From an uncultured virus (IMG/VR IMGVR_UViG_3300045738_001030) (Duplodnaviria > Heunggongvirae > Uroviricota > Caudoviricetes): a stretch of DNA of 64,000 bases. The translations under genes and the position numbers were made by a program. The notes below the pieces were generated by a model. The model was given only the letters and a program-made list of their open reading frames with translations, ran no database searches and was not told where the DNA came from. Positions 5,509-52,658 of the stretch are shown here, one piece after another. Numbering within the stretch: the first letter of the stretch is position 1; every line of letters begins with the position of its first letter. The DNA lies in IMG/VR virus record IMGVR_UViG_3300045738_001030, one strand, 5' to 3'.

Positions 5509-5515
5509 ATGAGCT

Positions 5516-8500
5516 ATGAATATTAATATTCTTAGCGGCTCACCAACCTCTCTGCTCACGAATAATCCTGCTATCGTTCCTGAGCCCGAAAAAGAAGATC
5601 CCCGGTCATTTGGGGATATAAATGCGACACGTCGCAATATCTACAATCGTGTGTTGGAGGCAGCGGTTGGAGTCGAACCTGTTTCGAATGCGCAGTACAC
5701 ATTAGGGCTGCGGGACGTTCATTATCTAGACTCCGACTACGTCACGATAAAAGACCAGAAGAAGGCCATTTTGTCTGGCGAGTCACGTGGTCGTCGCCTG
5801 CGTGGTACGTGGGAACTGACAGACAATATTACGGGAGATGTTGTTGACCGTAAGAAGTCTGTTTTGATGACCGTACCACATCTCACAGGGCGTGGGACGT
5901 ATATTCATCGGGGCAATGAATATACTCTTCGGAACCAGCAACGTTTACGTTCTGGAGTATTTACGCGTATTAAAGACAACGGAGAAATTGAAGCTCATGC
6001 GAATGTTATGCCGGGTAAAGGACTTTCGCATCGCTATTTTCTTGATCCTGAGAAAGGTGTCTTTTACATACGAGCAGGACAAGCCAAGATTACCCTCATG
6101 CCGTTGCTCAAGATGATGGGAGCTACTCCAAAACAGTTGCAAGATGCGTGGGGATCGGAGATTTACTCCGCCAATTACCCGGCGGATGAAGCGTCCGCAT
6201 ATAAAAAGCTTGAAGCCAAGTTTTTAAGCGTCAAGGAACGTGAAAACGAGGAACTTTCGACACGTGAAAAACTCATTGCCAAGTTTGCCAACATGTCACT
6301 TGACCCCGAGGTGACCAGACGAACGCTGGGTACGCCGTATGAAGGTTTGAACTTGGATGCGATTCTAGACATCACAAAAAAACTTATCAGTGTATCTCGC
6401 GGTGAAGGTTCTGTAGATGATAGAGATGCATTGTCATTTCAGCGTGTGATGGGGCCGGAGGATTTATTTGCTGAGCGCGTGGCCAGAGATTATGGGGGTG
6501 CTCGTCGGAATATCTTATGGAAGGCTACGGGGAAAGGTAACCTAAAAAGCACTCCTTCTTCTGCTTTAAAGGCGCAAATAGAGGCTGCTTTGTTGGGATC
6601 GGGCTTGGGACAAGCATTAGAGGAGATTAATCCTGCGGAAATTTATGACAAGGCGTATTCCATTAGCCGTATGGGCGAAGGCGGTATTCCTAGCTTAGAC
6701 GCAGTCCCCGAGGAAGCTCGTAGCGTGCAGCCAAGTCATATGGGATTTATTGATCCTGTGCGCACGCCTGAATCTGCAAAGGTGGGTGTTGATCTTTACT
6801 TAGCACGCAATGTTCGCAAAGGACGTGATGGCAAGATTTATACGCAATTCATGAATCCTAAGACAGGTAGCAAGGTTTGGCGGTCTCCACAAGATATCGC
6901 AGATTTAGTTGTGGGATTTCCGGATTCGATGGATAGGCGTGGTACTCGTGCTCCCGCTATGTCGGGCGGTAAGATGGTGTGGGCAAGAAAGAAAGATATT
7001 GACCTTGTGTTGCCTGATTTTGAGGAAGCATTTAGTCCCCTTTCCAATGTCATTCCGATGAAGAGTATGATCAAGGGAGGGCGTCTTGTCATGGGTAGTC
7101 GTATGCTCACGCAGGCACTTCCCTTGGTGGGTGCAGAAGCTCCGCTAGTTCAATCAGCTATTCCCGGTACTAATGGACGTCGTAGTTATGAACAGGAATA
7201 CAGTAATCGGATGGGAAGTCGATTCGCTTCTAAGCCCGGCAAAGTATTGAAGGTAGATGACGCTGGTATCACTGTTAAATATATTGATGGTGAGACAGAG
7301 ACACTTGAACTGTATAATAACTTTCCGTTTAACAGGAAAACTTTTATTCACCAAACCCCGACACTGGGTCATGGGGATGTATTTGACAAAGGAGAGTTGT
7401 TAGCACGTTCTAACTTTACTGATGCAACAGGCACGATGGCTCTGGGTTTGAATGCTCGGACAGCATATGTATCTTGGCAAGGAAAGAATTTTGAGGATGC
7501 CATCGTAATTTCGGAAAGCTTTGCTAAGCGGTTAAAGTCAGAACATATGTACCAACACGATCTAGAGGTCGATGACAAGACTAAGATCGGAAAGAAGAAC
7601 TATATTAGCTTGTTCCCCGGCAAGTATGATAAGGCTGCGTTGTCCAAGTTAGACGAAAATGGGGTTATAGAGCCCGGAACTACCGTTGAGTATGGAGATC
7701 CTCTCGTCTTGGCTGTGGGTAGACGAGAAACGGCTTATAATAAAGTCCACAGGAAAGGACAGGCTGGTCATGCAGACGCAAGTATCTTATGGGATCATCA
7801 CGATCCCGGGGTTGTTACCGATGTTGAGTTGGGGAAGAAGGGGCCGGTTGTCGTCGTTAAAAGCTACAGCGACATGCAAGTTGGAGATAAGCTCTCGGGA
7901 CGTTATGGAGATAAAGGCATCGTTGCTGATATCATCTCAGATGACCAAATGCCGCACGATCAAGACGGTAAGCCCTTTGAAGTTCTCCTCAGCCCCCTTG
8001 GAATAATCACGCGTACTAACCCTGCGCAAATGGCGGAGCTTTATCTCGGTAAAATTGCCGAGAAGCGTGGGGAACCTATAAAGATCCAAGATTTTGATAC
8101 GTCGAAAGACATGTCTCAGTGGGTTTATGACTGGCTACGTCGTGAGGGGCTGTCCGACTTAGACGATATTTACGATCCTACTCATGATCGTAAGATTACT
8201 CAGATTGCAACGGGTAATAGATTTTTTATGAAACTGCACCACACTGCCGAGTCTAAAGGGCAGGCGAGAGGTGCGGGGGCATATTCTGCTGAGGGGGCCC
8301 CCGCAAAGGGAGGCGCTTCCGGTTCTAAGAGAATGGCTCTTCTTGATACTAATGCTTTGTTGTCTCACGGGGCTACAGAAACTTTACAGGATGTGGGGGC
8401 AATACGTGGTCAGCGTAATGAGAATTACTGGCTCCAGTTTATGTCCGGGGTCAATCCAAGTAACCCTAAAGTTCCCATGGTCTACAGGAAGTTTTTGAAT

Positions 8501-9940
8501 CAACTCCGTGCGGCTGGTGTTAATGTCAAGAGAGAGGGTACTCAAACTCATATCATGGCTCTAACAGACAAGGATGTTAACCAGTTGGCGGGTACCAGAA
8601 ACTTGGTGAACGCTAGTGGGGTTGATTGGAATAAAGGACTTGAGCCAATTCGGGGCGGCCTTTTTGATCCGGCTATGACTGGCGGACACAATGGTGATCG
8701 TTGGACAGCGATTAAATTTGCTGAGCCAATGCCTAATCCTGTTATGGAAGAGCCTATTCGACGTCTGTTAGGAATTACGCAAAAAGACTTTCAGGATGTT
8801 ATTGCGGGTAGTCAGGAGTTAACCGGGTTTGGGTCAGGCCCGAAAGCTATTAGTAAGGCCCTTTCTTCTATTAACATAGATAAAGCATTAGCTCAGACGC
8901 GTGCTGTTATCAAGATGGGTAAGAGTACGGAGCGGGATCAGGCTATCCGGAAACTGGGTTACTTGAAAAGTGCCAAGAGATTAGGCATTGAGCCCAAAGA
9001 TTGGATACTAAAACGTGCCCCTGTTCTACCTCCGTCATTTCGTCCTGTTAATATGATGAGTAGCGGTGTACCGCTTATTAACGACGCGAATTATCTTTAC
9101 AAGGAGTTGTTTGAGGCCAATAAGAACCTTACAAGTATGCAGGAGTTAGTCGGAGATGACGTAGGAGAGGAGCGTCTGGCGGTCTACAACGCATTCAAAG
9201 CGGTGACAGGTCTCGGAGACCCCATCAGTCAAAAGTCGCAGGAGCGGGGCATACGGGGTATTCTAAAGGACGTATTTGGTACAAGCCCCAAGTTTGGGAC
9301 GGTACAGCGTAAGCTTATCTCCACTACAGTGGATAATGTGGGGCGTGCGGTCATTTCGCCTAATCCCAATTTGGACATGGATAGCGTGGGATTACCGGAG
9401 GATAAAGCGTTTGACGTCTATCAAAAGTTCATCGTTCGTCGGCTGAAACGTAAAGGAATGTCAATTCGTCAGGCGATGCAGCATATTCGGGACAGATCGG
9501 AACTTGCCAGAGAGACTTTGCTATCGGAAATGGAGCATCGTCCCGTTATCATTAATCGTGCCCCTGTTTTGCACAAATTTGGTATTATGGCTTTCAGGCC
9601 GCAACTCACAAAAGGAGATACTTTGCAGGTGTCGCCTTTGATTGTTAGCGGGTTTGGTGCTGACTTTGACGGGGATGCGATGAATTATCATGTTCCCACT
9701 ACGGAGGGAGCACGAAAAGAAGCATTTGAGAGGTTACTTCCAAGCAGGAATTTATTGAGCTTAGCTGATTTTAAGCGTCCTATGCATGTTCCTAGCAACG
9801 AGTATGTGGGCGGGTTGTGGCACGCCACGAAATCAAAAAGCAAACGACCAACGAAGATTTTTAATACCATGGCTGACATGAAAGCCGCATATGCTAGTGG
9901 GGATATTTCATTAGATGACCGGGTTCAGATTTTAAACTAA
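5516..9940 (+). CDS. rpoBC: DNA-directed RNA polymerase: full beta subunit fused to N-terminal half of beta'
   Basis: Co-linear beta motifs (GTYIHRGNE, SHMGFIDPVRTPES, MGSRMLTQA, GKNFEDAIVIS, GDKLSGRYGDKG, MKLHH) then beta' motifs (GGLFD, PVLPPSFRP, GRAVI, NRAPVLH, catalytic GADFDGD at 9656-9676). Confidence 0.97.
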   Translation: MNINILSGSPTSLLTNNPAIVPEPEKEDPRSFGDINATRRNIYNRVLEAAVGVEPVSNAQYTLGLRDVHYLDSDYVTIKDQKKAILSGESRGRRLRGTWELTDNITGDVVDRKKSVLMTVPHLTGRGTYIHRGNEYTLRNQQRLRSGVFTRIKDNGEIEAHANVMPGKGLSHRYFLDPEKGVFYIRAGQAKITLMPLLKMMGATPKQLQDAWGSEIYSANYPADEASAYKKLEAKFLSVKERENEELSTREKLIAKFANMSLDPEVTRRTLGTPYEGLNLDAILDITKKLISVSRGEGSVDDRDALSFQRVMGPEDLFAERVARDYGGARRNILWKATGKGNLKSTPSSALKAQIEAALLGSGLGQALEEINPAEIYDKAYSISRMGEGGIPSLDAVPEEARSVQPSHMGFIDPVRTPESAKVGVDLYLARNVRKGRDGKIYTQFMNPKTGSKVWRSPQDIADLVVGFPDSMDRRGTRAPAMSGGKMVWARKKDIDLVLPDFEEAFSPLSNVIPMKSMIKGGRLVMGSRMLTQALPLVGAEAPLVQSAIPGTNGRRSYEQEYSNRMGSRFASKPGKVLKVDDAGITVKYIDGETETLELYNNFPFNRKTFIHQTPTLGHGDVFDKGELLARSNFTDATGTMALGLNARTAYVSWQGKNFEDAIVISESFAKRLKSEHMYQHDLEVDDKTKIGKKNYISLFPGKYDKAALSKLDENGVIEPGTTVEYGDPLVLAVGRRETAYNKVHRKGQAGHADASILWDHHDPGVVTDVELGKKGPVVVVKSYSDMQVGDKLSGRYGDKGIVADIISDDQMPHDQDGKPFEVLLSPLGIITRTNPAQMAELYLGKIAEKRGEPIKIQDFDTSKDMSQWVYDWLRREGLSDLDDIYDPTHDRKITQIATGNRFFMKLHHTAESKGQARGAGAYSAEGAPAKGGASGSKRMALLDTNALLSHGATETLQDVGAIRGQRNENYWLQFMSGVNPSNPKVPMVYRKFLNQLRAAGVNVKREGTQTHIMALTDKDVNQLAGTRNLVNASGVDWNKGLEPIRGGLFDPAMTGGHNGDRWTAIKFAEPMPNPVMEEPIRRLLGITQKDFQDVIAGSQELTGFGSGPKAISKALSSINIDKALAQTRAVIKMGKSTERDQAIRKLGYLKSAKRLGIEPKDWILKRAPVLPPSFRPVNMMSSGVPLINDANYLYKELFEANKNLTSMQELVGDDVGEERLAVYNAFKAVTGLGDPISQKSQERGIRGILKDVFGTSPKFGTVQRKLISTTVDNVGRAVISPNPNLDMDSVGLPEDKAFDVYQKFIVRRLKRKGMSIRQAMQHIRDRSELARETLLSEMEHRPVIINRAPVLHKFGIMAFRPQLTKGDTLQVSPLIVSGFGADFDGDAMNYHVPTTEGARKEAFERLLPSRNLLSLADFKRPMHVPSNEYVGGLWHATKSKSKRPTKIFNTMADMKAAYASGDISLDDRVQILN

Positions 9941-9955
9941 TCGGAGTACGTGAAA

Positions 9956-10714
9956 ATGTCATACGGAACTATTAATCCGGAACTTTTGGGTTTAGCAAAA
10001 CAGAATCTTGCCAAGGCTGCTGACGATGAGAAAGCGGCATTTGTTCAAGCGGGTGATCCTATGATGGACCCGATGGCTGCCCAAGGGGGCGGTCCCCCCA
10101 TGGACCCGATGATGGGTGGTGGTGGTCCTCCCATGGACCCGATGATGGGTGGTGGTGGTGGTCCTCCTATGCCCGGCGGTCCCCCCATGGACCCAATGAT
10201 GGGCGGTGCTCCTCCCATGGACCCCATGGCTGCTCTTCAACCCATGATCGAACAGGCTGTTCAGGCTGCTATGGCCTCTCAGGGCGGCGGCATGGGCGGT
10301 GATGGCGGCCAGATTAAACCCAAGATCGACGTTAATATCGAGATCATGCAGATCAAGAAGATCTTGGCTAAGATTTCTGACGCTTTAGGTATTCAGATAC
10401 CTGCTGCTGACATGGTTGCTACTCCAGAAGACTTGACCGCGATGGCTCAGGGTAATTCTGCTGGTGCTGGTGCTTTAGAGGGCGGAGGAGGCCCGAGTGC
10501 TATTAGTCCTCCGTCGCCGATTGATCCTATGGGAGCGGCAATGCCCGGTGCTCCGGGTGGTGGTGCTCCGGGTGGAGCACCGAAGCAAGCAGCTTGGGAG
10601 AATGGCTCAGCCGACGCGGCAATTTCCAGTCAGGTTATTACAGATAGCTTGCAGTCTACTGCAAATGTGGCTTCCGCTTGGTTGAGCATGCAATCAGCAA
10701 AGCAAGGAGGATAA
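9956..10714 (+). CDS. Gly/Pro/Met-rich low-complexity protein, putative internal head protein
   Basis: GGAG RBS; GGPPMDPMM repeats; K-x-A motifs AKAA, EKAA, PKQA (GTG at 9950 is an alternative start). Confidence 0.7.
   Translation: MSYGTINPELLGLAKQNLAKAADDEKAAFVQAGDPMMDPMAAQGGGPPMDPMMGGGGPPMDPMMGGGGGPPMPGGPPMDPMMGGAPPMDPMAALQPMIEQAVQAAMASQGGGMGGDGGQIKPKIDVNIEIMQIKKILAKISDALGIQIPAADMVATPEDLTAMAQGNSAGAGALEGGGGPSAISPPSPIDPMGAAMPGAPGGGAPGGAPKQAAWENGSADAAISSQVITDSLQSTANVASAWLSMQSAKQGG
10064..10232 (+). repeat. Imperfect coding tandem repeat (GGPPMDPM)
   Basis: Five ATGGACCCnATG units with GGT/GGC runs. Confidence 0.8.
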
Positions 10715-10717
10715 CCA

Positions 10718-10939
10718 TTGCGACTCGAAATATTACCGGCAGGCATTGGCAGTAAGCCAATTATCTTAGAGGCGACGCAGGTTGTAGTTAAGGGGGCAAA
10801 TGGAACCCCGGTGCAACTTGCAGCAGAACAAAGTCCCTCTAGTGTTTTATTGTTGTCCAACGTGGATGATGATGATTTTAATGAGGCGTTAAGGCAAATT
10901 GGGTATGACATTACCGTAATTTGTCAGGACCTAGAATAA
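10718..10939 (+). CDS. Small hypothetical protein
   Basis: AGGAGG RBS before a TTG start; fills the gap between neighbours. Confidence 0.65.
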   Translation: MRLEILPAGIGSKPIILEATQVVVKGANGTPVQLAAEQSPSSVLLLSNVDDDDFNEALRQIGYDITVICQDLE

Positions 10940-10947
10940 AATGAGGT

Positions 10948-11553
10948 GTGGTGATGACAGGTAGAGATCTATCCGCCGATAGAAAATACTATGCGTCTGG
11001 GCAGGACTCGGCACTTCAACTGGGAGTAGCTTCTTCTCCGGCTGCGCCCTCGCTTAAAACTACTACGGGTACTACTGATTCTATATCGGACGTGTCTGAT
11101 ATTTCTCGTGTGCTCGATAGTGTATGTGACCTTATTTCTACCGGAGTCACGGAAATACATGTTCCTGTCATGAGTGATTTATCACAAAAAGCTCGGGCGA
11201 ACCTTGATTTACGTGTTGGCCGTGGGGAGTTGACTACGGATCAGATAGCTGGGGTTCGTCTTGTGCTTCTTGAGCCTGTGCCTCCTGAGGAGTCTGAAGA
11301 GGAAGAATTTGAAGAAGAAAATACTGAAGCAGAGTTTGAAGATACAGACGATGTAGTGGAAGAAGCAGAGGAAGAGGAAGAGGAAGAGGAAGAGGAAGAG
11401 GAAGAGGAAGAGGAAGAGGAAGAGGAAGAGGAAGAGGAAGAGGTAGAAGACGCGACTACATCGGATGAGCTTTCAGATGCGTTAAATAGTGATGATACCC
11501 CGTCAATTGCAAGCCTGTTTGGTGCAACGGATGACGATGACGGCGACGATTAA
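10948..11553 (+). CDS. Protein with long acidic (poly-Glu) tail
   Basis: About 110-aa N-domain followed by an Asp/Glu-rich tail including an uninterrupted poly-Glu run. Confidence 0.75.
   Translation: MVMTGRDLSADRKYYASGQDSALQLGVASSPAAPSLKTTTGTTDSISDVSDISRVLDSVCDLISTGVTEIHVPVMSDLSQKARANLDLRVGRGELTTDQIAGVRLVLLEPVPPEESEEEEFEEENTEAEFEDTDDVVEEAEEEEEEEEEEEEEEEEEEEEEEEEEVEDATTSDELSDALNSDDTPSIASLFGATDDDDGDD
11368..11442 (+). repeat. Perfect (GAGGAA)n microsatellite, 12.5 units, encoding poly-Glu
   Basis: Strictly alternating GAG GAA codons over 75 nt. Confidence 0.92.
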
Positions 11554-11566
11554 ATTCTGGAATTTA
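11551..11566. promoter_or_regulatory. Palindromic intergenic element TAAATTC-TG-GAATTTA (copy 2)
   Basis: Identical to 3271-3286; lies 13 nt before the start of the beta' C-terminal gene. Confidence 0.55.
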
Positions 11567-11579
11567 GCGGGTAAGCAGG

Positions 11580-13466
11580 ATGCGAAGCGCTACCGTAGGA
11601 CAATTTCTTGTTAATGAAACGCTCCCTAAGGAATTGCGGGATTATGAGCGTATTCTTGACAAGAAAGGTATGGTTGCGTTACTGCAAGAGGTAGCGGAAA
11701 ATCATCCTGAGGAATATCGGGAGATTTCTTTTGCCTTGAATAATATTGGGCGTCAAGGTGCGCAGGAAAGCGGGAGCTTTTCTTTCGGATTGCGTCATCT
11801 TAAAACATCAAAAGCCGCAAAAGACGCAAGAAAACGTATTCAAGATCGTCTTACGAAGCTTCTAAGTGACTCTAGTTTGGATGATGCAGCTCTCTCTGAT
11901 GCTATTGTGCTTGCTGTTGGCAAGGAGATGAAGCCCCAGCAAGAGGCTATTTTACAAGAAGCCCTTGCCGAGGAAAATCCATTAGCGTTTCAGGCAACTT
12001 CTGGTGCTCGTGGTAATCCCATGAATCTTGCTAGCTTGTTGGGGAGTGACTTGCTTTATGCGGGTCACCGGGATCAGCCTTTACCTATTCCGATACTGCG
12101 TAGTTATTCGGAGGGACTTTCTCCTACGGAATACTGGGCTAGTTCGTATGGCGCACGCAAAGGAATTATGGCGGCGAAGTTTGCAACGCAGGATGCCGGA
12201 TTCCTTTCCAAACAATTAAATCAAGTGGCGCATCGTCTTGTTGTCACAGATGATGATTACCAGACGGCGCAGCGCCAGCTTAAACGTGGCGTTCCTGTGG
12301 ACACAGACGATCTTGATAACGAAGGTGCGCTGTTGGCTATGGATACGGGGCCTTACAAGAAAAACACTATTATCACTCCCAAGATTAGGAAGCATTTGAA
12401 ACGTCTTGGTAAAAAGAGAATTTTAATAAGATCTCCTATGGTAGGTGGTTCTCCGGCTGGCGGAGTCTATGCCAAGGATGTGGGAGTTCGTGAGCGGGGT
12501 AAACTTCCGGGACTTGGCGAGCAGGTAGGTCTTCAGGCTGCTCAAGCTTTAAGTGAGCCTCTAAGTCAGGCTCAGTTATCTGCCAAGCATTCGGGCGGTG
12601 TTGCCGGTGAAGAAGAGGCTGTGGGTGGTTTTAAATACATTAATCAACTTATTCAGGTTCCCAAGAAATTCAAAGGCGGTGCGGCTCATACTACGGTAGA
12701 CGGCACTGTCCAACGTATTGAGGAAGCTCCTGCCGGGGGTGATTACGTCACAATTGACGAAGTTCCTCATTACGTCGGCGAGGGCTACGACTTGAAAGTT
12801 AAAAAGGGCGACAAAGTCGAGGCTGGGGACGTTATTAGCGAGGGGTTCCCCAATCCCGCAATTATCACCAAATACAAAGGAGTCGGCGAGGGTCGCCGGT
12901 ATTTCGTAAGTGCTTACAGAGAGGCTATGGAATCCGCAGGATTGTCGCCACATCGAAGAAATATTGAATTATTGTCGCGGGGTCTTATAAACCATGTTCG
13001 TTTGACTGAGGAATATGGTGATAATGTGCCTGACGATGTAATTCCTTACTCTACTTTAGAGCATAGGTGGAAGCCGAGACCGGGAGCGAGAACGTTAACG
13101 CCAAAGAAGGCGATTGGTAAATATCTGGAACGTCCAGTTTTGCATTACACAATTGGAACTAAGGTACGTCCTTCAATGTTGAGGGATTTTCAGGACTTTG
13201 AAATCAGTGATGTGAACGTTCACGACGACCCACCTCCTTTTGAGCCGGAAATGATCAGAGGGATGTATAGTCTTCAGCATGATCCGGATTGGATGACGAG
13301 AATGTACGGTTCCGGCCTAAAGAAGAGCTTGCTGGAGGGCGCTAGGCGAGGATCTACTAGCGAGGAACGGGGAACGAGTTTTGTTCCTAGTATTTCTCGT
13401 AGTGTCGATTTCGGGAAGATTCCGGGGGGTTTGGTGAAGTCTCCGGAGGAGGTTTATGATGGGTGA
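11580..13466 (+). CDS. rpoC: DNA-directed RNA polymerase beta' C-terminal half (bridge helix, trigger loop)
   Basis: ATVGQFLVN (=TTVGRA), SGARGN, SYSEGLSPTEYWASSYGARKG, AGFLSKQLNQVA (bridge helix), AAQALSEPLSQAQLSAKHSGG (trigger loop His), HRRNIELLSR. Confidence 0.95.
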   Translation: MRSATVGQFLVNETLPKELRDYERILDKKGMVALLQEVAENHPEEYREISFALNNIGRQGAQESGSFSFGLRHLKTSKAAKDARKRIQDRLTKLLSDSSLDDAALSDAIVLAVGKEMKPQQEAILQEALAEENPLAFQATSGARGNPMNLASLLGSDLLYAGHRDQPLPIPILRSYSEGLSPTEYWASSYGARKGIMAAKFATQDAGFLSKQLNQVAHRLVVTDDDYQTAQRQLKRGVPVDTDDLDNEGALLAMDTGPYKKNTIITPKIRKHLKRLGKKRILIRSPMVGGSPAGGVYAKDVGVRERGKLPGLGEQVGLQAAQALSEPLSQAQLSAKHSGGVAGEEEAVGGFKYINQLIQVPKKFKGGAAHTTVDGTVQRIEEAPAGGDYVTIDEVPHYVGEGYDLKVKKGDKVEAGDVISEGFPNPAIITKYKGVGEGRRYFVSAYREAMESAGLSPHRRNIELLSRGLINHVRLTEEYGDNVPDDVIPYSTLEHRWKPRPGARTLTPKKAIGKYLERPVLHYTIGTKVRPSMLRDFQDFEISDVNVHDDPPPFEPEMIRGMYSLQHDPDWMTRMYGSGLKKSLLEGARRGSTSEERGTSFVPSISRSVDFGKIPGGLVKSPEEVYDG

Positions 13467-16400
13467 CCAGAATTATGAGCTTTTTCGGTCTGCTCCTCGT
13501 AGTAAGACGGCGCAACAGCAGGGCGGACTGTTAAGTTCATTTTTAGGTGATTCCTACAAGGGTGGGAATGTCTGGGATACTAAATTAGGTAAACAATTTT
13601 TGCCTATGATGGGTCCTCTGACGGCTCAAAATCCTGCTCTGGGCGGTGGTCTTTTAGCACTGGGTATGGGGCCAAAAAATTGGCAAACGTTGATGTCGCC
13701 CGGAGGTTCTGGTTCCGGTCGGATCGGGGGATTTTCGAGTTCTCAATATAAACCGGGAACGTCATTGGCTTCTTATGGGACGCCTCAGCAGCCAACACCT
13801 CAGCAGCCAGTGCCCCAGCCAGCACTTCCACGACCAACGTCACCGCAGCAGTCTCCTATGACGCGGGCTCAGGTACCAACGCCAAATGCTGCAATGTCGA
13901 TTCCTCCGTATTCTGTGCCCAGAGCATCTACTGCTCAACCTATGACTCAGTTGGACATGGTGCAGGCTGTTACTCCTCGCTCGGGTATATTTGGACGGCG
14001 CACGCAGATGCAGGGCCAGTCGCCGAGAGTTCGTGCGATTGATATAGGTCGCCAGCAGGCCGCAACGGGTCAACGTCGCACACCACTTCGTAACATAGGT
14101 CAAGCACGTCAGCAAAATGTTTTTCAGAACACGACTCGACGGGATCTTCGTCCACAACAACAAGCAATGCGACAAATGAATAGAGCCAGTCGCCCGGGGT
14201 TATTTGGTCGCCGGAAAGCTGGTTCTGTGTTGGAAAAGTATGGCTTCGTCATCTCTCCAGCCGCAGTCGACCCTGCAAATTTCATGCTTGAGCAGCCCTC
14301 AGCGCCCGCCGAGCCCAAACCCCTCGCCTATGCCCAGCTGCCTGAAGATCTGCCTGCTGAGCGTCCCATCGATGTCGTGTCCGAGTCTCCCCTCTCCGAG
14401 TCTTCCCTCGTGACTCCGCCACCGCCGCCGAAGAAACTTACTGCCGAGGAATTGGAACGTAACAAGAGGACGCAGGAGATCCAGACAAATCGTTACCTTA
14501 ACCCTAACGCTGTTCCGGGCGAGGGAGAGGGGAACTACAAAGCCCTTAGTGACGCTTATTTTAGGGCGATACAGCTGGAGCCGAATAAACTTCAAGAGGC
14601 GCTTCAAGCCCAGCGGCAGCGACGGCGACAAGAACCTCCTGAGTATATGACTGATCCTCGGGAAAGGGATTTATTCCAAATAGGCGAAGAACTGTATGGT
14701 ACTCTGCCGGACCCGGAGGAGCGGGAACACTATGACATGCTGAGGAAGATTCAGCCCGAGTATCCGCCTGATGCGGAGTGGGAAAAAGGTTACAAGCAGG
14801 ACAGCCTGACCCACGAATCTCCGGAGGTTCAACAGTGGTTGCAATATGAAAATCTTGTGAAGAATGTACAGACCGGATGGACTCAGGAGGGCTGGGAGGA
14901 ACTTGTAACGAAGGCGAGAAGAGAACACGCTCTTCGGATTGCCCGGACTGATCCTAAGTTGAGTCATCTCCTTCACAGCCCTAATTCTGCCGAGGGAATT
15001 GCTACGCTTAATTGGTTGGCACAGACCACAACCGGAGAAGAGCGTCAAAGCGGTGTCGGCCCGGACGGAAAGCCGACCGCGACAACGGAAGATTTTGTTA
15101 GATCAATGTTCCCCGCAGATGCCGAGGGGATGGCGTTTGAATGGAATGTCGGGAGACGTTATCGCAGTCAATATGTGGATGCAGAAGGTAGGTCACTCTT
15201 GCTCAGAGATGACAAGGGGGAGCCAATCCTAGATGACGATGGGCAACCGCAGCCAATTCTTGACGAGACGACAGGAGAGCCTCGACAGGGAGGTTGGATA
15301 ACTCCAAGAGGCGAGCTGGTTCAAGACATTCCAATGTCATCGAGGTCGGACATCTCGCCGGAGGATGTGGGGACATTGAGGGGCTATGATGACGAGGGGA
15401 AACCGATCTACTGGCAAGCGCACGATACTCGTAATCCGTTGGGTGGAGAAGCTCCGCTGTCTCACGATGACTTAATGCAGGCTTACATCGATGTTTATAG
15501 CGAAGTTCTAGACCCGTCACGTCTTACCGCAGATCAAAACTGGGTACCATGGGGTGGTCCAGTCCGCAGCGGTACAGGTAAAGAAGTGCAACAGACAACA
15601 ATGGATGCAGATCCACTTACTCCTTGGGTTGATATTGATAGTACGATGATTCCGTGGGGGATGTCGCTTTATAACGATATTAGGGAGCAGGGCATAAATC
15701 CTCGGAATTGGCGAGAGGGTACAAAGAGCATCTTAGATCCTAGTCGAGGTATGCCGACAGCGGGTGAGCCTTATGAAGGTGCTATTGATACGAAAAAAAG
15801 TTACGCTGGTGGCACTGGTAAGTGGGTGCCATTTACGGATGCCGAGGGAAATAAATCGATGATCTGGCAAGATCTGCGTAGTCATCCAAGTAATGAGCGG
15901 GCTCCCAACCCGGGCTGGGAGAAAATCCGAGAACGTAGCGTTAGATTCTTGGCGGGTCAAGATGTAACTAACTGGATGTTGCAGTCCCAAATGACAGGAG
16001 GAATAACGGGTATTAATCCCGGTAACATAGGGAGAAAAATATTTGGCCCCGTGGTCAATTACGGAGTGAAAGCGCCACTTAAAGAGGCGGCCAAACTGGG
16101 GTTGGCCCTCACAAAAGACGGCTGGAGGGTAGTTAATAACGTACTTTATCAATCGCAAATACACTCACGAGGCTTAGGTGCTTCCAATTTGCCGTCGGTA
16201 CCGCCGCGTGTGCCGCTGGCATCGCACGGCCCGCCCGGCAGCGCTGCTTGGAATACAACTGATTATGCGGACGATGCTTTTTCCAGAGTCAAAAATATAC
16301 CCCGTGCAGTTCAAGATGCGGTGAGAAACGCGAGTAATGTGTTTCGAACTAGCGAGGGGGCACTTTCGTGGGGTGCAACTGGGCGGTCAGCGATTAATGC

Positions 16401-18444
16401 CGTTAATGTTCCCAAGCAGGTTTTGAGTACGGCAAAGAATATTGCTAACGCTAAAGGATTTTGGGGAAAAACTAATGCACTCTTTATGGCCGCTGAAGGG
16501 GTGAAAGCCATACTTGGGGAACCGGCATTAGACGCTCATACTCTTTCTAAGGCAGTTACGCCGGAGGAAATCAGAAACTGGGCGTTTTCGGGCTCTCAGG
16601 GAACGTTTAGCAAAGATTACGGTAACGCCGCTCCGGTGTTCGGGAGTAAATATCTTGGCCAAACGTTGCAGGGAATGAGTTCGCCACAAGCTGCCTCTAG
16701 GGAACTGGTTGCTTCCGGGCTTGATTTCATAGGAATGGGCTTGTTTAAGGCCGGGCTGATTAAAGATCCCCGGCTCGGTCGCAAGGTTTCTGATCCTAGT
16801 AAACCCGGAATGAGGATAGGGGCGAGCGAGCATATTCCATATATACCATCGCTTTTTGATGTCCCCCGCTGGCTCCATGGGTGGAGGCGGACAGTCCCAG
16901 ATCTCTATGATCCGCTCAGCCTTCCGGCGGGTAAAAAAGCGTCGTGGAAGAATTGGAAATCATATGCCCCGTGGGAGTGGTTTGATAAGGTGGATTTCGG
17001 GCAAACGATGCCTGAAAATATAACTCCCAAAGATGCGACTGAGTGGAGGACACATTTCGATAAGGAAGTAGCCTTAGTTAGATCAAACATCAAGGGCCTC
17101 GATTCAATGCGAGGTAGCGACGGTAAATTTATCATCGACAATGCGGAAGTCGATGATGAGATGCTAAGGGAAGTATTGCGAATACGAATGGCCAATGATG
17201 CTAACATTGGTGTTCCTTACGATCAGCTGTCCCCCGAACACAGAGAGGTCTTTGATCAGTACGTCCAAATTCGGCACAATCAAATAATGGGTGATGACGT
17301 TCGACGGGCAGCTATGCAGGATATGTTCAATATGCCTGAGATGCAAGAAGGACGGGAGTTATTCAGAACAGAGATGCAGTCGGTAGTCGAGTCTCAATAC
17401 AAGCATTTTCAGAACGAGTTAGGGAAGTTGCCACAACGAGCAGCGGACAAATCAGATCCAACGGCTACTATGAGATATAGTCACCCGATGATTTTGAGAG
17501 TGCGAAAGGCGGCGGAAACAGCTAATACGGAATCCTCTAAACTCGGTAAGCAAATTGTGGCAATGAGACGACATGACCTGATCCAAGACGGTAAGTGGAC
17601 AGGGGTGATGCAAAATAAGATCAATGAATTGCAACGTCAGCGAGGTGCCGCTCTGGGTAGAGTCGCAATGGCAAACAAGATAAGCGAGCTTTATCACGAT
17701 AACATGAGCTTCATGCCAAACTGGCTTGCTCGTGCGTACCAACCCAGCGGCATGTCGGATGCAGGCTCGTTTGCAGCCTCGAATCTAATAACTAGTAGAG
17801 GTGATATGCGTGAGGACATGGCGCAATACGGCAAAGTGACGTCAACCGCATATCAGGGGCAACGAGATTACAATCCGCGCGATAGAACAATCACTATGGA
17901 AGATATAAGTAGCGCCACGTACGCCCGTAATTTACTTTTGGACGATGGCGGCGGCACGGTGGGAGTGGGCCTTCTTGAGGAATACAAGAATAGTATTTAT
18001 AGCGGCACTATAGAAGACGTGAGGCGAGAGACGAATAATTGGGGTAAACAGGTAGGTGGAACCAAGTATCCAGAGTACAAGAGAGCTATGACGCGACAAG
18101 AAGCTCATGATCGTGGCATCCTCGGGTCAGAGGATACTTGGCCGGGGATAAATATGTTCCCCGACGAGATTGATGAAGTCATCGCAGTAAAAGAGAGGGA
18201 ATGGCATAGGGTAAAGGCTGACTTCCAGAGGCGAATTAATGACGCGCAGGACACTATAGCCGTGATTCCTGAGAAACGGCAGCGGTTGCAGCTTTACAAT
18301 GAGTTGAGGGGTAAACTGGAACTTCTTAGGGATATCGGAGGAGGTTCGGGCGGTTTGCCCCTGAAGCCCGGAGATACTTTTGATGAGCGAAATAAGAGAG
18401 AGAAAGCGGATAGCAGGGCGTGGCATATGAAATACGGTAGATGA
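13456..18444 (+). CDS. Very large (1662 aa) Cys-free hypothetical protein, putative internal virion/ejection protein
   Basis: GGAGGAGG RBS; overlaps the beta'-C stop; SKTA near N-terminus; Pro/Gln-rich N-region; helical C-region; no recognisable enzyme motif. Confidence 0.75.
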   Translation: MMGDQNYELFRSAPRSKTAQQQGGLLSSFLGDSYKGGNVWDTKLGKQFLPMMGPLTAQNPALGGGLLALGMGPKNWQTLMSPGGSGSGRIGGFSSSQYKPGTSLASYGTPQQPTPQQPVPQPALPRPTSPQQSPMTRAQVPTPNAAMSIPPYSVPRASTAQPMTQLDMVQAVTPRSGIFGRRTQMQGQSPRVRAIDIGRQQAATGQRRTPLRNIGQARQQNVFQNTTRRDLRPQQQAMRQMNRASRPGLFGRRKAGSVLEKYGFVISPAAVDPANFMLEQPSAPAEPKPLAYAQLPEDLPAERPIDVVSESPLSESSLVTPPPPPKKLTAEELERNKRTQEIQTNRYLNPNAVPGEGEGNYKALSDAYFRAIQLEPNKLQEALQAQRQRRRQEPPEYMTDPRERDLFQIGEELYGTLPDPEEREHYDMLRKIQPEYPPDAEWEKGYKQDSLTHESPEVQQWLQYENLVKNVQTGWTQEGWEELVTKARREHALRIARTDPKLSHLLHSPNSAEGIATLNWLAQTTTGEERQSGVGPDGKPTATTEDFVRSMFPADAEGMAFEWNVGRRYRSQYVDAEGRSLLLRDDKGEPILDDDGQPQPILDETTGEPRQGGWITPRGELVQDIPMSSRSDISPEDVGTLRGYDDEGKPIYWQAHDTRNPLGGEAPLSHDDLMQAYIDVYSEVLDPSRLTADQNWVPWGGPVRSGTGKEVQQTTMDADPLTPWVDIDSTMIPWGMSLYNDIREQGINPRNWREGTKSILDPSRGMPTAGEPYEGAIDTKKSYAGGTGKWVPFTDAEGNKSMIWQDLRSHPSNERAPNPGWEKIRERSVRFLAGQDVTNWMLQSQMTGGITGINPGNIGRKIFGPVVNYGVKAPLKEAAKLGLALTKDGWRVVNNVLYQSQIHSRGLGASNLPSVPPRVPLASHGPPGSAAWNTTDYADDAFSRVKNIPRAVQDAVRNASNVFRTSEGALSWGATGRSAINAVNVPKQVLSTAKNIANAKGFWGKTNALFMAAEGVKAILGEPALDAHTLSKAVTPEEIRNWAFSGSQGTFSKDYGNAAPVFGSKYLGQTLQGMSSPQAASRELVASGLDFIGMGLFKAGLIKDPRLGRKVSDPSKPGMRIGASEHIPYIPSLFDVPRWLHGWRRTVPDLYDPLSLPAGKKASWKNWKSYAPWEWFDKVDFGQTMPENITPKDATEWRTHFDKEVALVRSNIKGLDSMRGSDGKFIIDNAEVDDEMLREVLRIRMANDANIGVPYDQLSPEHREVFDQYVQIRHNQIMGDDVRRAAMQDMFNMPEMQEGRELFRTEMQSVVESQYKHFQNELGKLPQRAADKSDPTATMRYSHPMILRVRKAAETANTESSKLGKQIVAMRRHDLIQDGKWTGVMQNKINELQRQRGAALGRVAMANKISELYHDNMSFMPNWLARAYQPSGMSDAGSFAASNLITSRGDMREDMAQYGKVTSTAYQGQRDYNPRDRTITMEDISSATYARNLLLDDGGGTVGVGLLEEYKNSIYSGTIEDVRRETNNWGKQVGGTKYPEYKRAMTRQEAHDRGILGSEDTWPGINMFPDEIDEVIAVKEREWHRVKADFQRRINDAQDTIAVIPEKRQRLQLYNELRGKLELLRDIGGGSGGLPLKPGDTFDERNKREKADSRAWHMKYGR

Positions 18445-18475
18445 TGTTGCTATTTAACCGGCTAAAGAGATAAAC

Positions 18476-18578: not shown

Positions 18579-21197
18579 ATGGACGGAACCATGTCGCAGG
18601 CAAACTACGAGAAAGTTTCTGGAACTGGAACTTTTTGGCGTTCATCTGCTAACCCAAATCAACTCAGATCGATTTTAAGGGATCAGGTAAACAACGGTCT
18701 TTTTAAATCCGCTAGCGCGCCTGTTGGCGGTGAAACTGAGTTTGAGCAGGCTTTTTCGAGCTTAGCTTATGCCTATTTGAAAGATAAGGCACCTCGTCTT
18801 CTTGATTATCTTGTTGGTTTCCAGCTTGTTGATCGAAACGACGATAATACTAAAGCCATGGGTGTCTTCGGATTTAGTGTTGGCGATCAGTGGCTTTATG
18901 CGCCCGTATTTTTTCTGAACGGGGATCTCAAGGGGCATGAACTTCTTTATCTCAAGAATAAAGATGCCTTTGTTCCGATGAAAGAAAACTGGGTTAACTA
19001 CTTAATCTCTCGTAAGCCGCATATTCTGGGTGAGCAGTCCGAGCAAGACACTTTTGAACTGGGTGGTCTTCAGCCGGATATCTATGGCTTGTCGATGTCT
19101 CCTTCGACGGGTTTTGGCAAGCGAGGATTCGATCAATGGTCTCGTCCGTTCCTGCCGATATACGCTGCGACTAAAGTTGCATCGGCGAAAAGCTTGTACA
19201 AGAGTGCGGGCCCCAATACCAAGTTGGAACTGGACGTTATTGTGGAAGCTCCTTATCAGGCGGCGCTGGCAGAGATTGCTGGCAATCTGGATTTGAACAG
19301 GATCATGCCTTCCAGTTTTGACATGTTGAAAGTGGCTTTTGATATTTCACAGAAATTCCCTGCTATCTTGGATGGGTTTACTCGTTTCTACGGGGATGAT
19401 TGTTTTGGACGTTGGGGAGCCCAATTAAAAGAGGCAGCTACTAAGGTTCAAAATAGCATTTTGCCCGCCAACCAATTCCCCGAGGCCCCACGTTACGCGA
19501 CGACCAAGTCTCTTATCCCAGAGACAGACAATCGTCCCGAACATCCGATTAAATCGGGTGCTTTGCGTATGTACGTGTATGAGCACGTAACTGTAAAGGG
19601 GGCACCAGAGCTTACAGATGATGAGCGTGAAAAGCTCATGGAGGACACTGTCCTTATCAAGGATCATCGTGAGGGGGAAGAAGTCAGCAAGGCGTATAAC
19701 ACACAGATGGATATGCGGCTGATTAATCCTGACGCTACTAATCTTTATCGCGTGCTTGAGAAGCCGGGCTCGTTTAGCAAGATGTTTGTTGCTGTTCATC
19801 CGCTTTCTAACCGTGGTGGCCAAGATATGGTTACGGCTGTTCGTCTAGATGGTGACGGTGATAAGGCATGGTTAAACAGTTACACAGGTAACGTATTTTC
19901 GGATCAGGAAGCCGAACGTGACGAGTGGGACGATTGGTTTGACGATCTCTCTGATTCAGATAGTCTTTCTGTGGGTGGCACATATATCGCTGTCACGCCT
20001 ACGCATAGTAGTACTGTCCCATTTGTAGTCAGAGAGAATTACGGGGACGGTCTCTATAAAGTAGATTTTGAAGACAGGCCGCATTATAACGAAACACGAG
20101 TTGTTCAACACATAAGGGCTCAAAACGGTGATTATTTAGGATCGTATGACCCTTCTCCAAGTCCGTATGGTGCGCTCTTACGTGTTAACGCAGAGGGCAA
20201 AGCAGGAACACGTCTTCGTGCTATTTCCGGTGAGCTACGTGTACCGGGAGTAGCTAAATTCCTAACTCTTAAGAAGCCTCGCAGCGAAGATAAGGGCAGC
20301 TTACTTATTCCTTGTTGTAACAGTGGAGAAGGAGACCACAGTAAGTCTGAGCCGATTCAATTTGGAAATATTGAAGATATCCAGACGCTTTTCTACGAGA
20401 AGACGGCACGGTTAAAGCTCTACAATGACGGACACGATGTTTCGCTTACGTCTACTGACGGAACGAAAAGACTTAGTCAGAAGGGAATGCTTATGTCGCT
20501 AATTGGCGACCATGGATTTTCCGAGAAGACAGCGCGTGAGATGATTAAAGAATCTATACGCAAAGAGGCTTCTGTTTATCGAGTTATTTATGCCCCGGGT
20601 TTTGGGGATAAGAAACACTTGGTCAAGTCCGCTGCTCCTAATGATAGTATTTTGGCGGGTGGTCCAAATGCGCCTCATGCTGACATGGGGCCTCAGTTCG
20701 GCATGGAAATGCTGGGAGGGCGTACGCCAGTTCAGACTCAGTACGCGGATGAGTCAGTTCAAGTTGTGCCGGAGCTGGAAGCGGGACGTACTGATCCAAA
20801 TGTGTGGGACCCGTGGCAGAATTACACGGCAGAAGACTTCCAAGGTGTCATGAATGTCGCGCAGAATGCTGCCGGTGAGGGGCAGAAGGAAGTTTTTGAT
20901 ACAGCGATGATTGGTACTTTGTTAAAGTCAGTACGCCAAGATTCTTTGGTAGACCGTCATCTTGGTGACTTAATGAAGGCTATTAATAGCTTGGGACGGA
21001 TTTTATTCCTGTTCTATTGGCATCAGGAAGAGTTTGAAGATCGTTATGGTAAATCGGATATGCCTGAATTGGAAGATAGTCTTCGGAACGCATTTGAGGC
21101 GTTAGGCGATGTGACTCTCTTCTTGAAAGAGAAAACTATTGAGTCTCCGTTCACTGAAAATGCTGAACTGAATCTCGAAGAATCTGCGAGGAATTAA
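18579..21197 (+). CDS. Large head-region protein with many K-x-A motifs (function unknown)
   Basis: 872 aa; FKSA, TKVA, YKSA, LKVA, LKEA, EKTA x2, RKEA, VKSA; first gene after the candidate promoter. Confidence 0.75.
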   Translation: MDGTMSQANYEKVSGTGTFWRSSANPNQLRSILRDQVNNGLFKSASAPVGGETEFEQAFSSLAYAYLKDKAPRLLDYLVGFQLVDRNDDNTKAMGVFGFSVGDQWLYAPVFFLNGDLKGHELLYLKNKDAFVPMKENWVNYLISRKPHILGEQSEQDTFELGGLQPDIYGLSMSPSTGFGKRGFDQWSRPFLPIYAATKVASAKSLYKSAGPNTKLELDVIVEAPYQAALAEIAGNLDLNRIMPSSFDMLKVAFDISQKFPAILDGFTRFYGDDCFGRWGAQLKEAATKVQNSILPANQFPEAPRYATTKSLIPETDNRPEHPIKSGALRMYVYEHVTVKGAPELTDDEREKLMEDTVLIKDHREGEEVSKAYNTQMDMRLINPDATNLYRVLEKPGSFSKMFVAVHPLSNRGGQDMVTAVRLDGDGDKAWLNSYTGNVFSDQEAERDEWDDWFDDLSDSDSLSVGGTYIAVTPTHSSTVPFVVRENYGDGLYKVDFEDRPHYNETRVVQHIRAQNGDYLGSYDPSPSPYGALLRVNAEGKAGTRLRAISGELRVPGVAKFLTLKKPRSEDKGSLLIPCCNSGEGDHSKSEPIQFGNIEDIQTLFYEKTARLKLYNDGHDVSLTSTDGTKRLSQKGMLMSLIGDHGFSEKTAREMIKESIRKEASVYRVIYAPGFGDKKHLVKSAAPNDSILAGGPNAPHADMGPQFGMEMLGGRTPVQTQYADESVQVVPELEAGRTDPNVWDPWQNYTAEDFQGVMNVAQNAAGEGQKEVFDTAMIGTLLKSVRQDSLVDRHLGDLMKAINSLGRILFLFYWHQEEFEDRYGKSDMPELEDSLRNAFEALGDVTLFLKEKTIESPFTENAELNLEESARN

Positions 21198-21900: not shown

Positions 21901-22929
21901 ATGAAATTGCGTTACAAGGATGTGCGACTCTACAACCCGTTTTTACGCCCAGACTGGCGTTTTGAGCGGGTGTTGAAGCTCGTGGGACGTGTTCCTACGC
22001 CGGGGCGTACTACGAAGCTCGATGACGAGAACATTAAGCAAGCTCGTTCATTTATGCTCAAATGGAGGAAAGGAGAATCCTTTAGAGAGCAGTTGTTGTC
22101 GGAAGATCCGGGTTTGTATTACGCCTACATGGTGTACGACAATTTGCATACTGATCCGGAAGTGAGATTTATGCTTGAAGCTCGTCTTCTTTCCGGGCAA
22201 CCGGCGGCGGAGATTGCAGAAGCATTAAAGACACTTCCAGAAACAGTTAGTTGGTACGAAAAGCTATTTTTTAATATAAAGCCATTTCTTCGACATCACG
22301 ATTGGATCGTAAAGCACGTGTTGCTACCTGCATCTGATCGTTTTGCAGAGCATGAAGATGCTGATGACGATGTTCCACAACCACACGGTACGCCACTTAT
22401 CGTAAGACCGCATTTGGACATGACATTGAAGTTCTTTTCGTACTTCGGTGGCCCTGTTTTATGCGAATTTATGATCGGCGGTTTCCGACGAGGAACGACG
22501 GTTCACACACAAGACGATGTTTCTTCGTGGTTAGACGATCAATGGCAATTGACTTTGCAACGGCGTAGTGCGCAGGCAGCCGGTGTTTTCGAGGTTAATC
22601 GCTATAATGTCATGGAATTATTTGCCACTCATACTCGCATTATTGAACTACAACGTACAGCAGAGAGTGGTGATGAACGTCGTTCCTTGTTTGAACGACA
22701 CGTTCAGGCCATGTTGACAGAGTTGCCGTGGACAGTAGGACGCGAGGCAAAACAGCTTTATGAAGGTTCCGTTATTAGTGAATATGAGGATCTTCCTGCC
22801 GAGCTTAATGCAGAAGAATTAATGTGTATTGGCGGCGGGGAAAGTCCAGAGTATCTAGACGAGCTTCCTGAAATTTCTATTACAGGTCGTGACGATGGGG
22901 AGGCAAGTAATGCCAAATCTAACAAGTAG
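21901..22929 (+). CDS. Hypothetical protein (possible helix-turn-helix segment)
   Basis: 342-aa ORF; SGQPAAEIAEALKTLPETVSWY looks HTH-like. Confidence 0.65.
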   Translation: MKLRYKDVRLYNPFLRPDWRFERVLKLVGRVPTPGRTTKLDDENIKQARSFMLKWRKGESFREQLLSEDPGLYYAYMVYDNLHTDPEVRFMLEARLLSGQPAAEIAEALKTLPETVSWYEKLFFNIKPFLRHHDWIVKHVLLPASDRFAEHEDADDDVPQPHGTPLIVRPHLDMTLKFFSYFGGPVLCEFMIGGFRRGTTVHTQDDVSSWLDDQWQLTLQRRSAQAAGVFEVNRYNVMELFATHTRIIELQRTAESGDERRSLFERHVQAMLTELPWTVGREAKQLYEGSVISEYEDLPAELNAEELMCIGGGESPEYLDELPEISITGRDDGEASNAKSNK

Positions 22930-27638: not shown

Positions 27639-27693
27639 TGACACTGAATTTTGTTGCACGGAACTGCAACCGTTTTTGCAAGGAGTGCTCTAT

Positions 27694-51936: not shown

Positions 51937-52658
51937 TGGATTACTTAGAGCCGGAATACCGGGAAGCTTATGAGGCGTGGGAGCAAGATCAAACTCCCAC
52001 CGGAAATGCGGCTATATTGGGGGCCATTGATCCAGTGGTACGAAAAGGCACTTCAATGTATGGCGGTGTAAGTCCTTTGACGCGCAGTCGTGGGCGGAAG
52101 TTGGCGCTAGAGGGTTTGCGTACTTATGATCGAAGCCGATCTCGTCTTCAAAGTCACCTTATAAATCAGCTAAAGGGGCTTCAGCGTATTTCTAAGCAGC
52201 AACATGAGGTAGTACATGCCCCCGAAAGAGTCTTATTAGATCGTTTCAAGCTACAGAGATACGAGCAAGAATTAATGGACACATTAGGACGTGACGGGAC
52301 AGACGCTGAGTTGGCAGACCAGTCTGGATTTTCGTTGAAACGTATAAAGCATATTCGAGGCTGGCAACCCGGAATGACAAGTAGCCAATTAGAGGACATT
52401 AGTCCTAATTTGGCGGGTGGTCAGTTTGTAGGGGGCGTTAGCAGTCAGGCAGCTTGGTTGGAAGTAGTTTATGACAGTTTGGCCCCCATGGATCAGAAGA
52501 TCATGGAATTTTCGATGGGACTTCACGGACGAAAAGAACTATCCAATCAGGAAATTGCCAAAAAGTTAAAGCGTACTCCCGGTGCGATAAGTCAACGCAA
52601 GAAAAAGATACAAGAGATTATCAGACAAGAAGAAGACCTTTCTCCCTTTATAGGATAA
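51936..52658 (+). CDS. Sigma70-family RNA polymerase sigma factor-like protein
   Basis: TAATG coupling; region 2-like LEGLRTYDRSRSRLQSHL; region 3 ELMDTLGRDGTDAELA; region 4 SLAPMDQKIMEFSMGL..LSNQEIAKKLKRTPGAISQRKKK. Confidence 0.8.
   Translation: MDYLEPEYREAYEAWEQDQTPTGNAAILGAIDPVVRKGTSMYGGVSPLTRSRGRKLALEGLRTYDRSRSRLQSHLINQLKGLQRISKQQHEVVHAPERVLLDRFKLQRYEQELMDTLGRDGTDAELADQSGFSLKRIKHIRGWQPGMTSSQLEDISPNLAGGQFVGGVSSQAAWLEVVYDSLAPMDQKIMEFSMGLHGRKELSNQEIAKKLKRTPGAISQRKKKIQEIIRQEEDLSPFIG

Follow-up and report, generated by a model that had tools for sequence, protein, structure and literature searches.

A cysteine-free, two-chain multisubunit RNA polymerase, probably carried in the virion, in an uncultured relative of Salmonella phage Arash

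The window analysed here, i.e., a whole stretch of 64,000 nucleotides from the uncultured virus IMGVR_UViG_3300045738_001030 with 48 genes counted, encodes a multisubunit RNA polymerase (RNAP) on two chains of 1474 and 628 amino acids (aa), neither of which contains a cysteine. Sequence matches identify the phage as a myovirus whose kin are Salmonella phage Arash and Vibrio phages D69, D148 and D181. Its IMG/VR relatives reach 190-235 kb, and we propose an Arash-like myovirus with a genome of about 200 kb; genome-wide counts were taken from complete relatives (e.g., G002). The best-matching sequencing run is a seawater metagenome that may be the sample of origin, which would make the phage marine; no RNA dataset was among the matching runs listed. 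The cultured relatives have Gram-negative hosts. Genome bins matching relatives of the window (4 of 20 in Planctomycetota, the remainder scattered over phyla) probably contain mis-binned phage contigs.

Based on Pfam and alignment to PDB structures, chain 1 comprises a whole beta subunit, to about residue 1005, followed by the N-terminal catalytic half of beta' (beta'N). It carries the catalytic DxDGD motif of beta' (GADFDGD, with D1383, D1385 and D1387) as well as the catalytic lysines of the beta barrel (Lys792 and Lys800, aligned to Thermus beta), all invariant in 81/81 aligned rows; by motif and lysines alike, the two chains together constitute a double-psi-barrel multisubunit RNAP. The AF2 model of chain 2 (pLDDT 81), the C-terminal half of beta' (beta'C), matches bacterial beta' with a Z of 30.3 and a root-mean-square deviation of 3.4 over 447 aligned residues. 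The boundaries of the chains, beta joined to beta'N with a separate beta'C downstream, are those of Arash, and judged by sequence the enzyme belongs to the Arash-type two-chain group. No alpha subunit (PF01000) was found in any of five complete relatives, positive controls being detected in 14/14. Each of these five genomes holds one PF00623 locus and one PF00562 locus, and none showed a second RNAP gene set, although a very divergent enzyme could escape detection. E369, K379 and S382 of chain 1, at positions that we take to be rifampicin contacts, differ from the Thermus sequence, and we predict that the enzyme would be insensitive to rifampicin. Chain 1 is split into two open reading frames (ORFs) in L009/L062, L052, L053 and L054, and the same is seen in Vibrio phages D148 and D181; introns or homing endonucleases are the probable cause. 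In three homologues (P0085, P0102 and P0107) an intein-like insertion lies within the catalytic motif itself: after DFDG the insert begins with Asn-Cys and ends with Asp-Thr, and if it were spliced in the usual way the third Asp would be replaced by Asn. Two ORFs of about 1,650 aa from Lentisphaerae/Victivallales bins (L135 and L136) each combine, within a single frame, stretches that match beta, beta'N and beta'C (identity about 25-34%); with 27-31 cysteines, they represent a distinct fused RNAP.

Table 1. Features of the window discussed in the text (K-x-A, Lys-x-Ala; Cys, number of cysteines).
Coordinates	Strand	Product	Length (aa)	Cys	Basis and remarks
5516..9940	+	RNAP chain 1 (beta + beta'N)	1474	0	Pfam Rpb2_3, Rpb2_6, Rpb1_1, Rpb1_2; PDB alignments
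9950..10714	+	Pro/Gly/Met-rich low-complexity protein	254	0	probable internal head protein
10948..11553	+	protein with long poly-Glu tract	201	1	between the RNAP genes
11580..13466	+	RNAP chain 2 (C-terminal half of beta')	628	0	Pfam Rpb1_5
13456..18444	+	orphan protein	1662	0	K-x-A at residue 17; probable co-packaged cargo, from position
18579..21197	+	conserved virion protein	872	kept	Arash gp218 relative; K-x-A rich
22889..24304	+	K-x-A-rich head protein	471 (464 from ATG 22910)	0	
24285..26150	+	candidate membrane-inserting ejection protein	621	0	glycine-zipper segment 53-119
26154..27638	+	probable prohead protease	494	9	35% identity to Arash gp222; 17 K-x-A
27676..29082	+	scaffold-like protein	468	0	between protease and capsid genes; K-x-A rich
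30220..31164	+	major capsid protein		0	30% identity to Arash gp226; phrog_2522
36261..39110	+	tail sheath (external structural control)		kept	28% to Arash gp236, itself a phrog_279 tail sheath match
44115..48965	+	tape-measure-like protein	1616	0	position and size
51924..52658	+	sigma-70-type factor, proposed virion sigma	244	0	Arash gp10 orthologue; in baseplate module

A preliminary description of this DNA had noted that cysteine is missing from both RNAP chains, from the 1662-aa protein coupled to them, from the 471-aa (464-aa) and 621-aa proteins and from the protein in tape-measure position, and each of these counts was confirmed as zero. The cysteine richness that it attributed to neck and fibre proteins was found as well (2.5-3.7% in the genes at 33411, 34393, 61230 and 62196; 99 cysteines in 7,313 aa over eighteen neck, tail, baseplate and fibre-region genes grouped by position). 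Beyond these, the major capsid, scaffold-like, 254-aa and sigma proteins lack the residue, and 7 of the 17 window ORFs of at least 400 aa are without it. Against a background of 0.88% (146 cysteines in 16,591 aa over the remaining 45 of the 48 genes), the probability of no cysteine, computed post hoc, amounts to 2e-6 for chain 1 alone and to 8.5e-9 for the two RNAP chains together. Avoidance of the triplets TGT and TGC in the DNA is excluded because the chain-1 gene lacks them only in frame, with 44 and 83 occurrences in its two alternative frames.

The absence of cysteine is conserved in homologues, a check that the preliminary description had proposed. The chain-1 search found 1,703 homologues, of which the 120 listed were examined; the counts below are among these listed matches. 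108 of them, including the window copy, are shorter than 1,560 aa and were taken as intein-free: 95 contain no cysteine, i.e., 94 of 107 relatives when the window copy is set aside. These relatives are 57-86% identical to the window chain, with 19 cysteines in 159,684 aa (0.012%), and pairwise identity among chain-1 homologues is 52-96%. The 12 longer homologues carry 16 intein-like insertions with 146 cysteines in 5,842 residues (2.5%), while their polymerase parts hold 2 in 17,891 residues (0.011%). Inteins splice out before packaging, and the cysteine rule therefore concerns the mature chain. Among derived residue states in the chain-1 homologues, cysteine accounts for 15 of 6,131. For chain 2, the aligned beta'C core is cysteine-free in 41 of 46 distinct rows, and 47 of 56 chains from IMG/VR loci are cysteine-free when left uncorrected for inteins and ORF starts. 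As for the wider proteome, mechanically picked ORFs of G002 average 1.56% cysteine, and only 4 of its 44 ORFs of at least 400 aa have none, namely both RNAP chains, a scaffold-like and a tape-measure-like protein. Cytoplasmic enzymes keep the residue (reductase 2.3%, DNA polymerase 1.8%), as do two control families, the tail sheath (0/23 homologues cysteine-free, 0.67%) and the 872-aa neighbour (0/50, 0.93%). Taken together, these sequence counts show that the absence of cysteine from the RNAP chains is under strong selection.

The zinc sites of beta' were also affected. The N-terminal zinc ribbon is deleted near residues 1047-1071 of chain 1 and its place taken by a 25-residue span of constant length without a cysteine motif, which was matched in 81 of the 120 listed homologues. 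In chain 2, the second-site zinc-ligand cysteines of 8i23_D and 8x6f_D align to Y227, G289, Y297 and D300. As these alignments indicate, both zinc sites of beta' (for the zinc-binding domain, see PMC9378689) are lost in the window RNAP. The four-cysteine beta'C site is retained in Arash, D69, L059, L064, L127, L132 and L134. In a quick, midpoint-rooted tree from which rows with fewer than 400 aligned residues were excluded, the window falls in a 28-row clade without the second site (support 99), and two long-branch rows without the site fall outside this clade; there was therefore one loss or more. The first quick tree required one change and the wider tree at least two, despite which the loss may have had a single origin.

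The sigma factor found in the baseplate module follows the same rule. Its matches to Pfam Sigma70_r3 and Sigma70_r4 lie below cut-off and it matches phrog_351, while the top 50 Foldseek hits are all sigma chains (E 1e-6), with low TM owing to domain motion. A search of 35 related records located the gene in 31 of them, and all 28 distinct homologues (6,885 aa) are cysteine-free, three neighbour genes having 0.6-1.0% cysteine. Modelled in complex with chain 1 (residues 640-1395), sigma gave a score of 0.71 (best control 0.00). The mark applied to such models is attained by 116 of 157 pairs with solved structures but by 2 of 215 mismatched ones; contact agreement between runs was at least 91% and partner pLDDT at least 79. 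In this model sigma binds the clamp helices of beta', although sigma-RNAP is a textbook pair that may pass through likeness alone. Foldseek and the model thus predict a member of the sigma-70 family, with the fold of regions 2, 3 and 4 and the clamp-helix interface. Arash has a second sigma, gp196, which is not a virion protein, and another occurs in G003; a second sigma-2 match above cut-off was seen in only one of five complete relatives.

The proposal that this RNAP is packaged in the virion, initially argued from the cysteine count, is now well supported by virion mass spectrometry of Arash in addition to the conserved lack of cysteine. In Arash particles Gp206 gave 3516 spectra, the highest number of all proteins, Gp216 gave 1210 and the sigma factor Gp10 gave 467 (PMC10585845, Table 2), i.e., 2.3, 2.0 and 2.0 spectra per residue compared with 1.5 for the portal, 1.0 for the sheath and 4.3 for the capsid. 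The virion list in the available text of that paper includes neither the second sigma gp196 nor helicase gp198 nor terminase gp1. Detection in particles thus concerns a relative with 25-30% identity and the window enzyme is known from genes alone; we nevertheless consider it very probable that the latter is packaged too. The preliminary description also placed the RNAP genes among head-type rather than replication genes, which is true downstream (protease-like, scaffold-like and capsid genes); upstream, a ribonucleotide reductase gene ends 4.7 kb away.

We put at roughly 0.7 the probability that the two RNAP chains and the sigma factor form the sole RNAP of the phage, a virion-delivered holoenzyme that is packaged, ejected and used for early transcription. 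Judging from gene position, RNAP chains and sigma would be expressed late, alongside the head and tail genes, and the chains would be packed into the head, as detected in Arash particles. By analogy with the N4 and phiKZ-type models (PMC13434306, PMC7598289, PMC10052503), they would be ejected through the tail with the DNA in a loosened state and, once in the cytoplasm, refold as a holoenzyme of three chains (beta-beta'N, beta'C and sigma) without alpha and without zinc. Transcription of the early genes would be directed by sigma, whose binding to the core has been modelled. Selection would strip cysteine from the mature chains such that neither cross-links nor metal mis-binding arise during storage and threading in an oxidising setting, and the clade of the window would have surrendered both beta' zinc sites under the same selection.

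Other proteins may travel with the enzyme. The gene for the 1662-aa orphan has its own Shine-Dalgarno sequence and its start overlaps the stop of beta'C; contigs from three runs in three studies, two of them with short left flanks, cross this junction without an indel, which rules against an assembly error. Searches returned no full-length homologue of the orphan, only itself and two short fragments; the profile-library search covered residues 301-1500, and the Atlas search gave matches at 0.78 but no family. In 10 of 44 distinct relatives, all within the window subclade, beta'C itself bears a tail of 314-851 aa (1 cysteine in 6,014 aa), and two genome-bin relatives have cysteine-free tails of 859 and 599 aa; most clade members have no tail. 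Neither BLASTP, phmmer nor a tail profile detected homology between the orphan and these tails, the link being positional and compositional. Low-complexity proteins are generally cysteine-poor, and the case is therefore weaker for the orphan and the tails. The same slot in Arash is occupied by a cysteine-free, virion-detected helicase, gp217. Together, the occupants of the position after beta'C suggest a cargo slot, although other ORFs at this position do contain cysteine (31 in 2,839 aa). In G001, the 7 cysteines of the homologue of the Arash helicase are confined to the part that follows residue 573, downstream of both the helicase match and a K-x-A. G001 also contains, distant from its RNAP genes (L115:4174-12594), a second block of cysteine-poor, K-x-A-flanked, glycine-zipper proteins with a gp217-like helicase, which are probable further head cargo.

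The K-x-A motif is over-represented in the 471-aa head protein, the protease-like protein and the scaffold-like protein (p<0.001) and in four more (p<0.02) of the 48 tested, the enriched regions being 26154-29556, 31245-31664, 4492-5508, 18579-21197 and 22889-24304, and likewise in Arash gp222/gp223. This distribution makes it a candidate specificity site of the prohead protease. No such enrichment was found in the RNAP chains or the orphan; every beta'C tail has a K-x-A within 130 residues, with about half expected by chance. Going further, we tentatively entertain, at less than even odds, a scenario in which a large phage clade carries in its head a zinc-independent, cysteine-free three-chain holoenzyme that assembles itself after ejection without alpha, omega or zinc. 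Here beta'C would serve as packaging carrier, fused and fast-evolving cargo would be freed by the Lys-x-Ala prohead protease, and the 1662-aa protein would be cargo turned into a separate gene.

Several observations weigh against a packaged, ejected enzyme dedicated to early genes. 13 of the 107 intein-free homologues contain 1-3 cysteines, and chain 1 is cysteine-free in only 44 of 64 of the same uncorrected IMG/VR loci. Arash and D69 keep the four zinc cysteines of beta'C, so packaging does not need a full purge. The phiKZ virion subunits gp80, gp149, gp178 and gp180 have 16 cysteines in 2,614 aa (26 in 2,307 aa for the five non-virion ORFs counted), a count that leaves out gp123 and a small fifth virion chain; this and the Arash zinc site mean that a virion RNAP need not be cysteine-free. 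Cysteine is likewise missing from the capsid and scaffold proteins, although these are not ejected, and the marker is therefore not specific to ejection. The enzyme, one per genome, could additionally or even chiefly transcribe late genes. A motif search over 71 intergenic regions of G002 revealed terminator U-tracts but no conserved early promoter, and sigma-70 sites showed no excess in window positions 700-19000 (14 vs 20.6 in shuffles). Finally, the Arash preparation, from one sucrose gradient, yielded 116 proteins including primase, ligase and reductase, for which the authors allow carry-over (PMC10585845).

That contamination by cytoplasmic enzymes, together with a marine habitat and the single RNAP per complete genome, by which late genes need either this RNAP or the host enzyme, would suit a non-virion RNAP of the late genes, detected in Arash as carry-over and depleted of cysteine by oxidative stress or zinc scarcity in the host. 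We find this improbable, given that the reductase, the DNA polymerase and even the RNAP inteins keep their cysteines and that unique peptides numbered 128 for Gp206 but 2-11 for each of primase, ligase and reductase (PMC10585845). A virion RNAP might instead act mainly as an ejection motor or structural core whose transcription draws DNA in, most genes being expressed by host RNAP and other phage sigmas. For the virion RNAP of N4, a membrane-anchored enzyme that draws the genome into the cell has been proposed (PMC13434306), and the long cysteine-free beta'C tails and the second sigmas of Arash and G003 are compatible with such a role; yet most clade members lack a tail, a second sigma is seldom seen in the complete relatives, and no membrane anchor was noticed in the RNAP chains, for which no dedicated test was made. 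This alternative appears unlikely. Chance or drift in a cysteine-poor proteome, for which speak a window mean of only 0.72% and the composition of low-complexity proteins, is hardly credible in view of 0.012% cysteine over so many residues at 52-96% pairwise identity, its scarcity among derived states and the replacement of zinc ligands; the homologue, intein and sigma counts refute it for both RNAP chains and sigma.

If the enzyme is packaged and ejected, the cysteine rule could stem, as for N4, from unfolded chains crossing an oxidising periplasm. Gram-negative hosts of the cultured relatives would agree with this special case of our reading, as would the tape-measure-like and glycine-zipper proteins that obey the same rule. 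A contractile tail may, however, shield cargo from the periplasm, and capsid and scaffold share the rule; phiKZ virion RNAP has its 16 cysteines, Arash its zinc site, and the genome-bin relatives, scattered across phyla, allow no host assignment. Schitoviridae ejection proteins, a precedent for the packaged and ejected reading as a whole, contain 0.00075% cysteine vs 0.865%, and the periplasm has been suggested as the reason for the cysteine-free ejection operon of N4 and DEV (PMC11445570), while passage through the tail has been suggested elsewhere (PMC3915230). A periplasmic cause is unproven and in our view rather doubtful.

Among known systems, Arash (OQ632216; Gp206, Gp216 and Gp10), which with Vibrio phages D69, D148 and D181 comes closest, shares with the window the two-chain cut (30% and 26% identity), the deleted ribbon region, a cysteine-free sigma in the baseplate module and orthologous protease-like, capsid and sheath genes. 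Both Arash and D69 differ by the retained beta'C zinc site and 1-2 cysteines in chain 1, and Arash has helicase gp217 in place of the orphan. Our literature searches, with subscription journals outside their coverage, found no description of the two-chain architecture or of the cysteine rule; the available text of the Arash paper (PMC10585845) does not discuss fusion, cysteine or zinc, and that of PMC7824862 describes no such beta-beta' fusion. The virion RNAPs of phiKZ, SPN3US and AR9 are likewise double-barrel multisubunit enzymes without alpha, with beta' split after the catalytic barrel; they are packaged in the head and presumed to be ejected unfolded (PMC7598289, PMC10052503), a likeness that we infer for the window enzyme. 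The phiKZ/AR9 type differs in possessing a pair of RNAPs and no sigma that can be recognised, and in having five or more virion chains that contain cysteine, whereas the window encodes one RNAP whose two cysteine-free chains, the first joining beta to beta'N, are accompanied by a sigma-70-type factor. The analogy with N4 drawn at the outset holds for the cysteine rule, since N4 and DEV have a cysteine-free virion RNAP flanked by cysteine-free co-ejected proteins (PMC11445570, PMC3915230, PMC13434306), but fails for enzyme type: theirs is a single T7-like enzyme of about 3,500 aa and unrelated fold in a podovirus, while the window has Rpb1/Rpb2 domains. Functionally, the window enzyme resembles the virion RNAPs of the phiKZ type and, in its cysteine rule, that of N4, but it is a member of neither family.

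Phage RNAPs still recognisably akin to cellular beta and beta' also occur in the mReC group and in phages of the RHph_Y65 type. The mReC group is defined by beta and beta' matches of at least 800 aa, NADxDGD and Gp23-type capsids (Weinheimer and Aylward 2020, PMC7481178). The window has GADFDGD (75 of the 120 listed homologues have NADFDGD), a fused chain that is long enough and a beta'C of 628 aa; its capsid gave no Pfam match to PF07068 at E 0.01 and is nearest to Arash gp226 and Bacillus phage G gp27, such that mReC membership is not supported by the capsid. Rhizobium phage RHph_Y65 differs in its intact beta', which lies beside DNA polymerase in the replication module and has 16 cysteines and both zinc motifs. 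The bacterial RNAP-sigma70 holoenzyme shares the catalytic residues, the beta'C and sigma folds and the predicted clamp-helix interface, and diverges by its alpha subunit, both zinc sites, its chain boundaries and its rifampicin-pocket residues.

Homologues of the 254-aa protein are mostly cysteine-free (16 of 19; 3 cysteines in 4,564 aa), and contigs break within the poly-Glu repeat of the gene next to it. Only 6 of 18 homologues of the 471-aa protein lack cysteine (0.26%). The 621-aa protein has a weak match to NF053611 (E 1e-3, far under cut-off), and the nearest named Atlas clusters of the protease-like protein are Peptidase_S77/S80 at 0.90-0.91, which is a lead only. The tape-measure counterparts, 1174 aa long in G002 and 1097 aa in Arash (gp4, assigned from its position), are also without cysteine. 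No holin or spanin family matched the 124 of 214 G002 ORFs scanned. At 55485-56902 a lipoprotein-like ORF precedes a papain-family (C1) peptidase-like gene with a weak sub-cut-off match, and homologues of this region sit upstream of RNAP in many relatives. A protein that combines a family 2 glycosyltransferase with a methyltransferase-like part is encoded between the capsid and neck genes (32122-33342).

To our knowledge, both zinc sites of beta' have been regarded as fixed parts of bacterial-type RNAPs. More than 100 natural sequences keep the catalytic core without them, and the relatives that retain the second site offer a direct comparison. A 2020 review noted that a jumbo-phage virion RNAP had never been purified and expected such enzymes to be exceptionally good at refolding (PMC7598289); two chains plus a recognisable sigma would make a far simpler system for refolding tests. 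The cysteine rule, though not specific to ejection, may be usable as a sequence marker of ejected cargo in uncultured phages.

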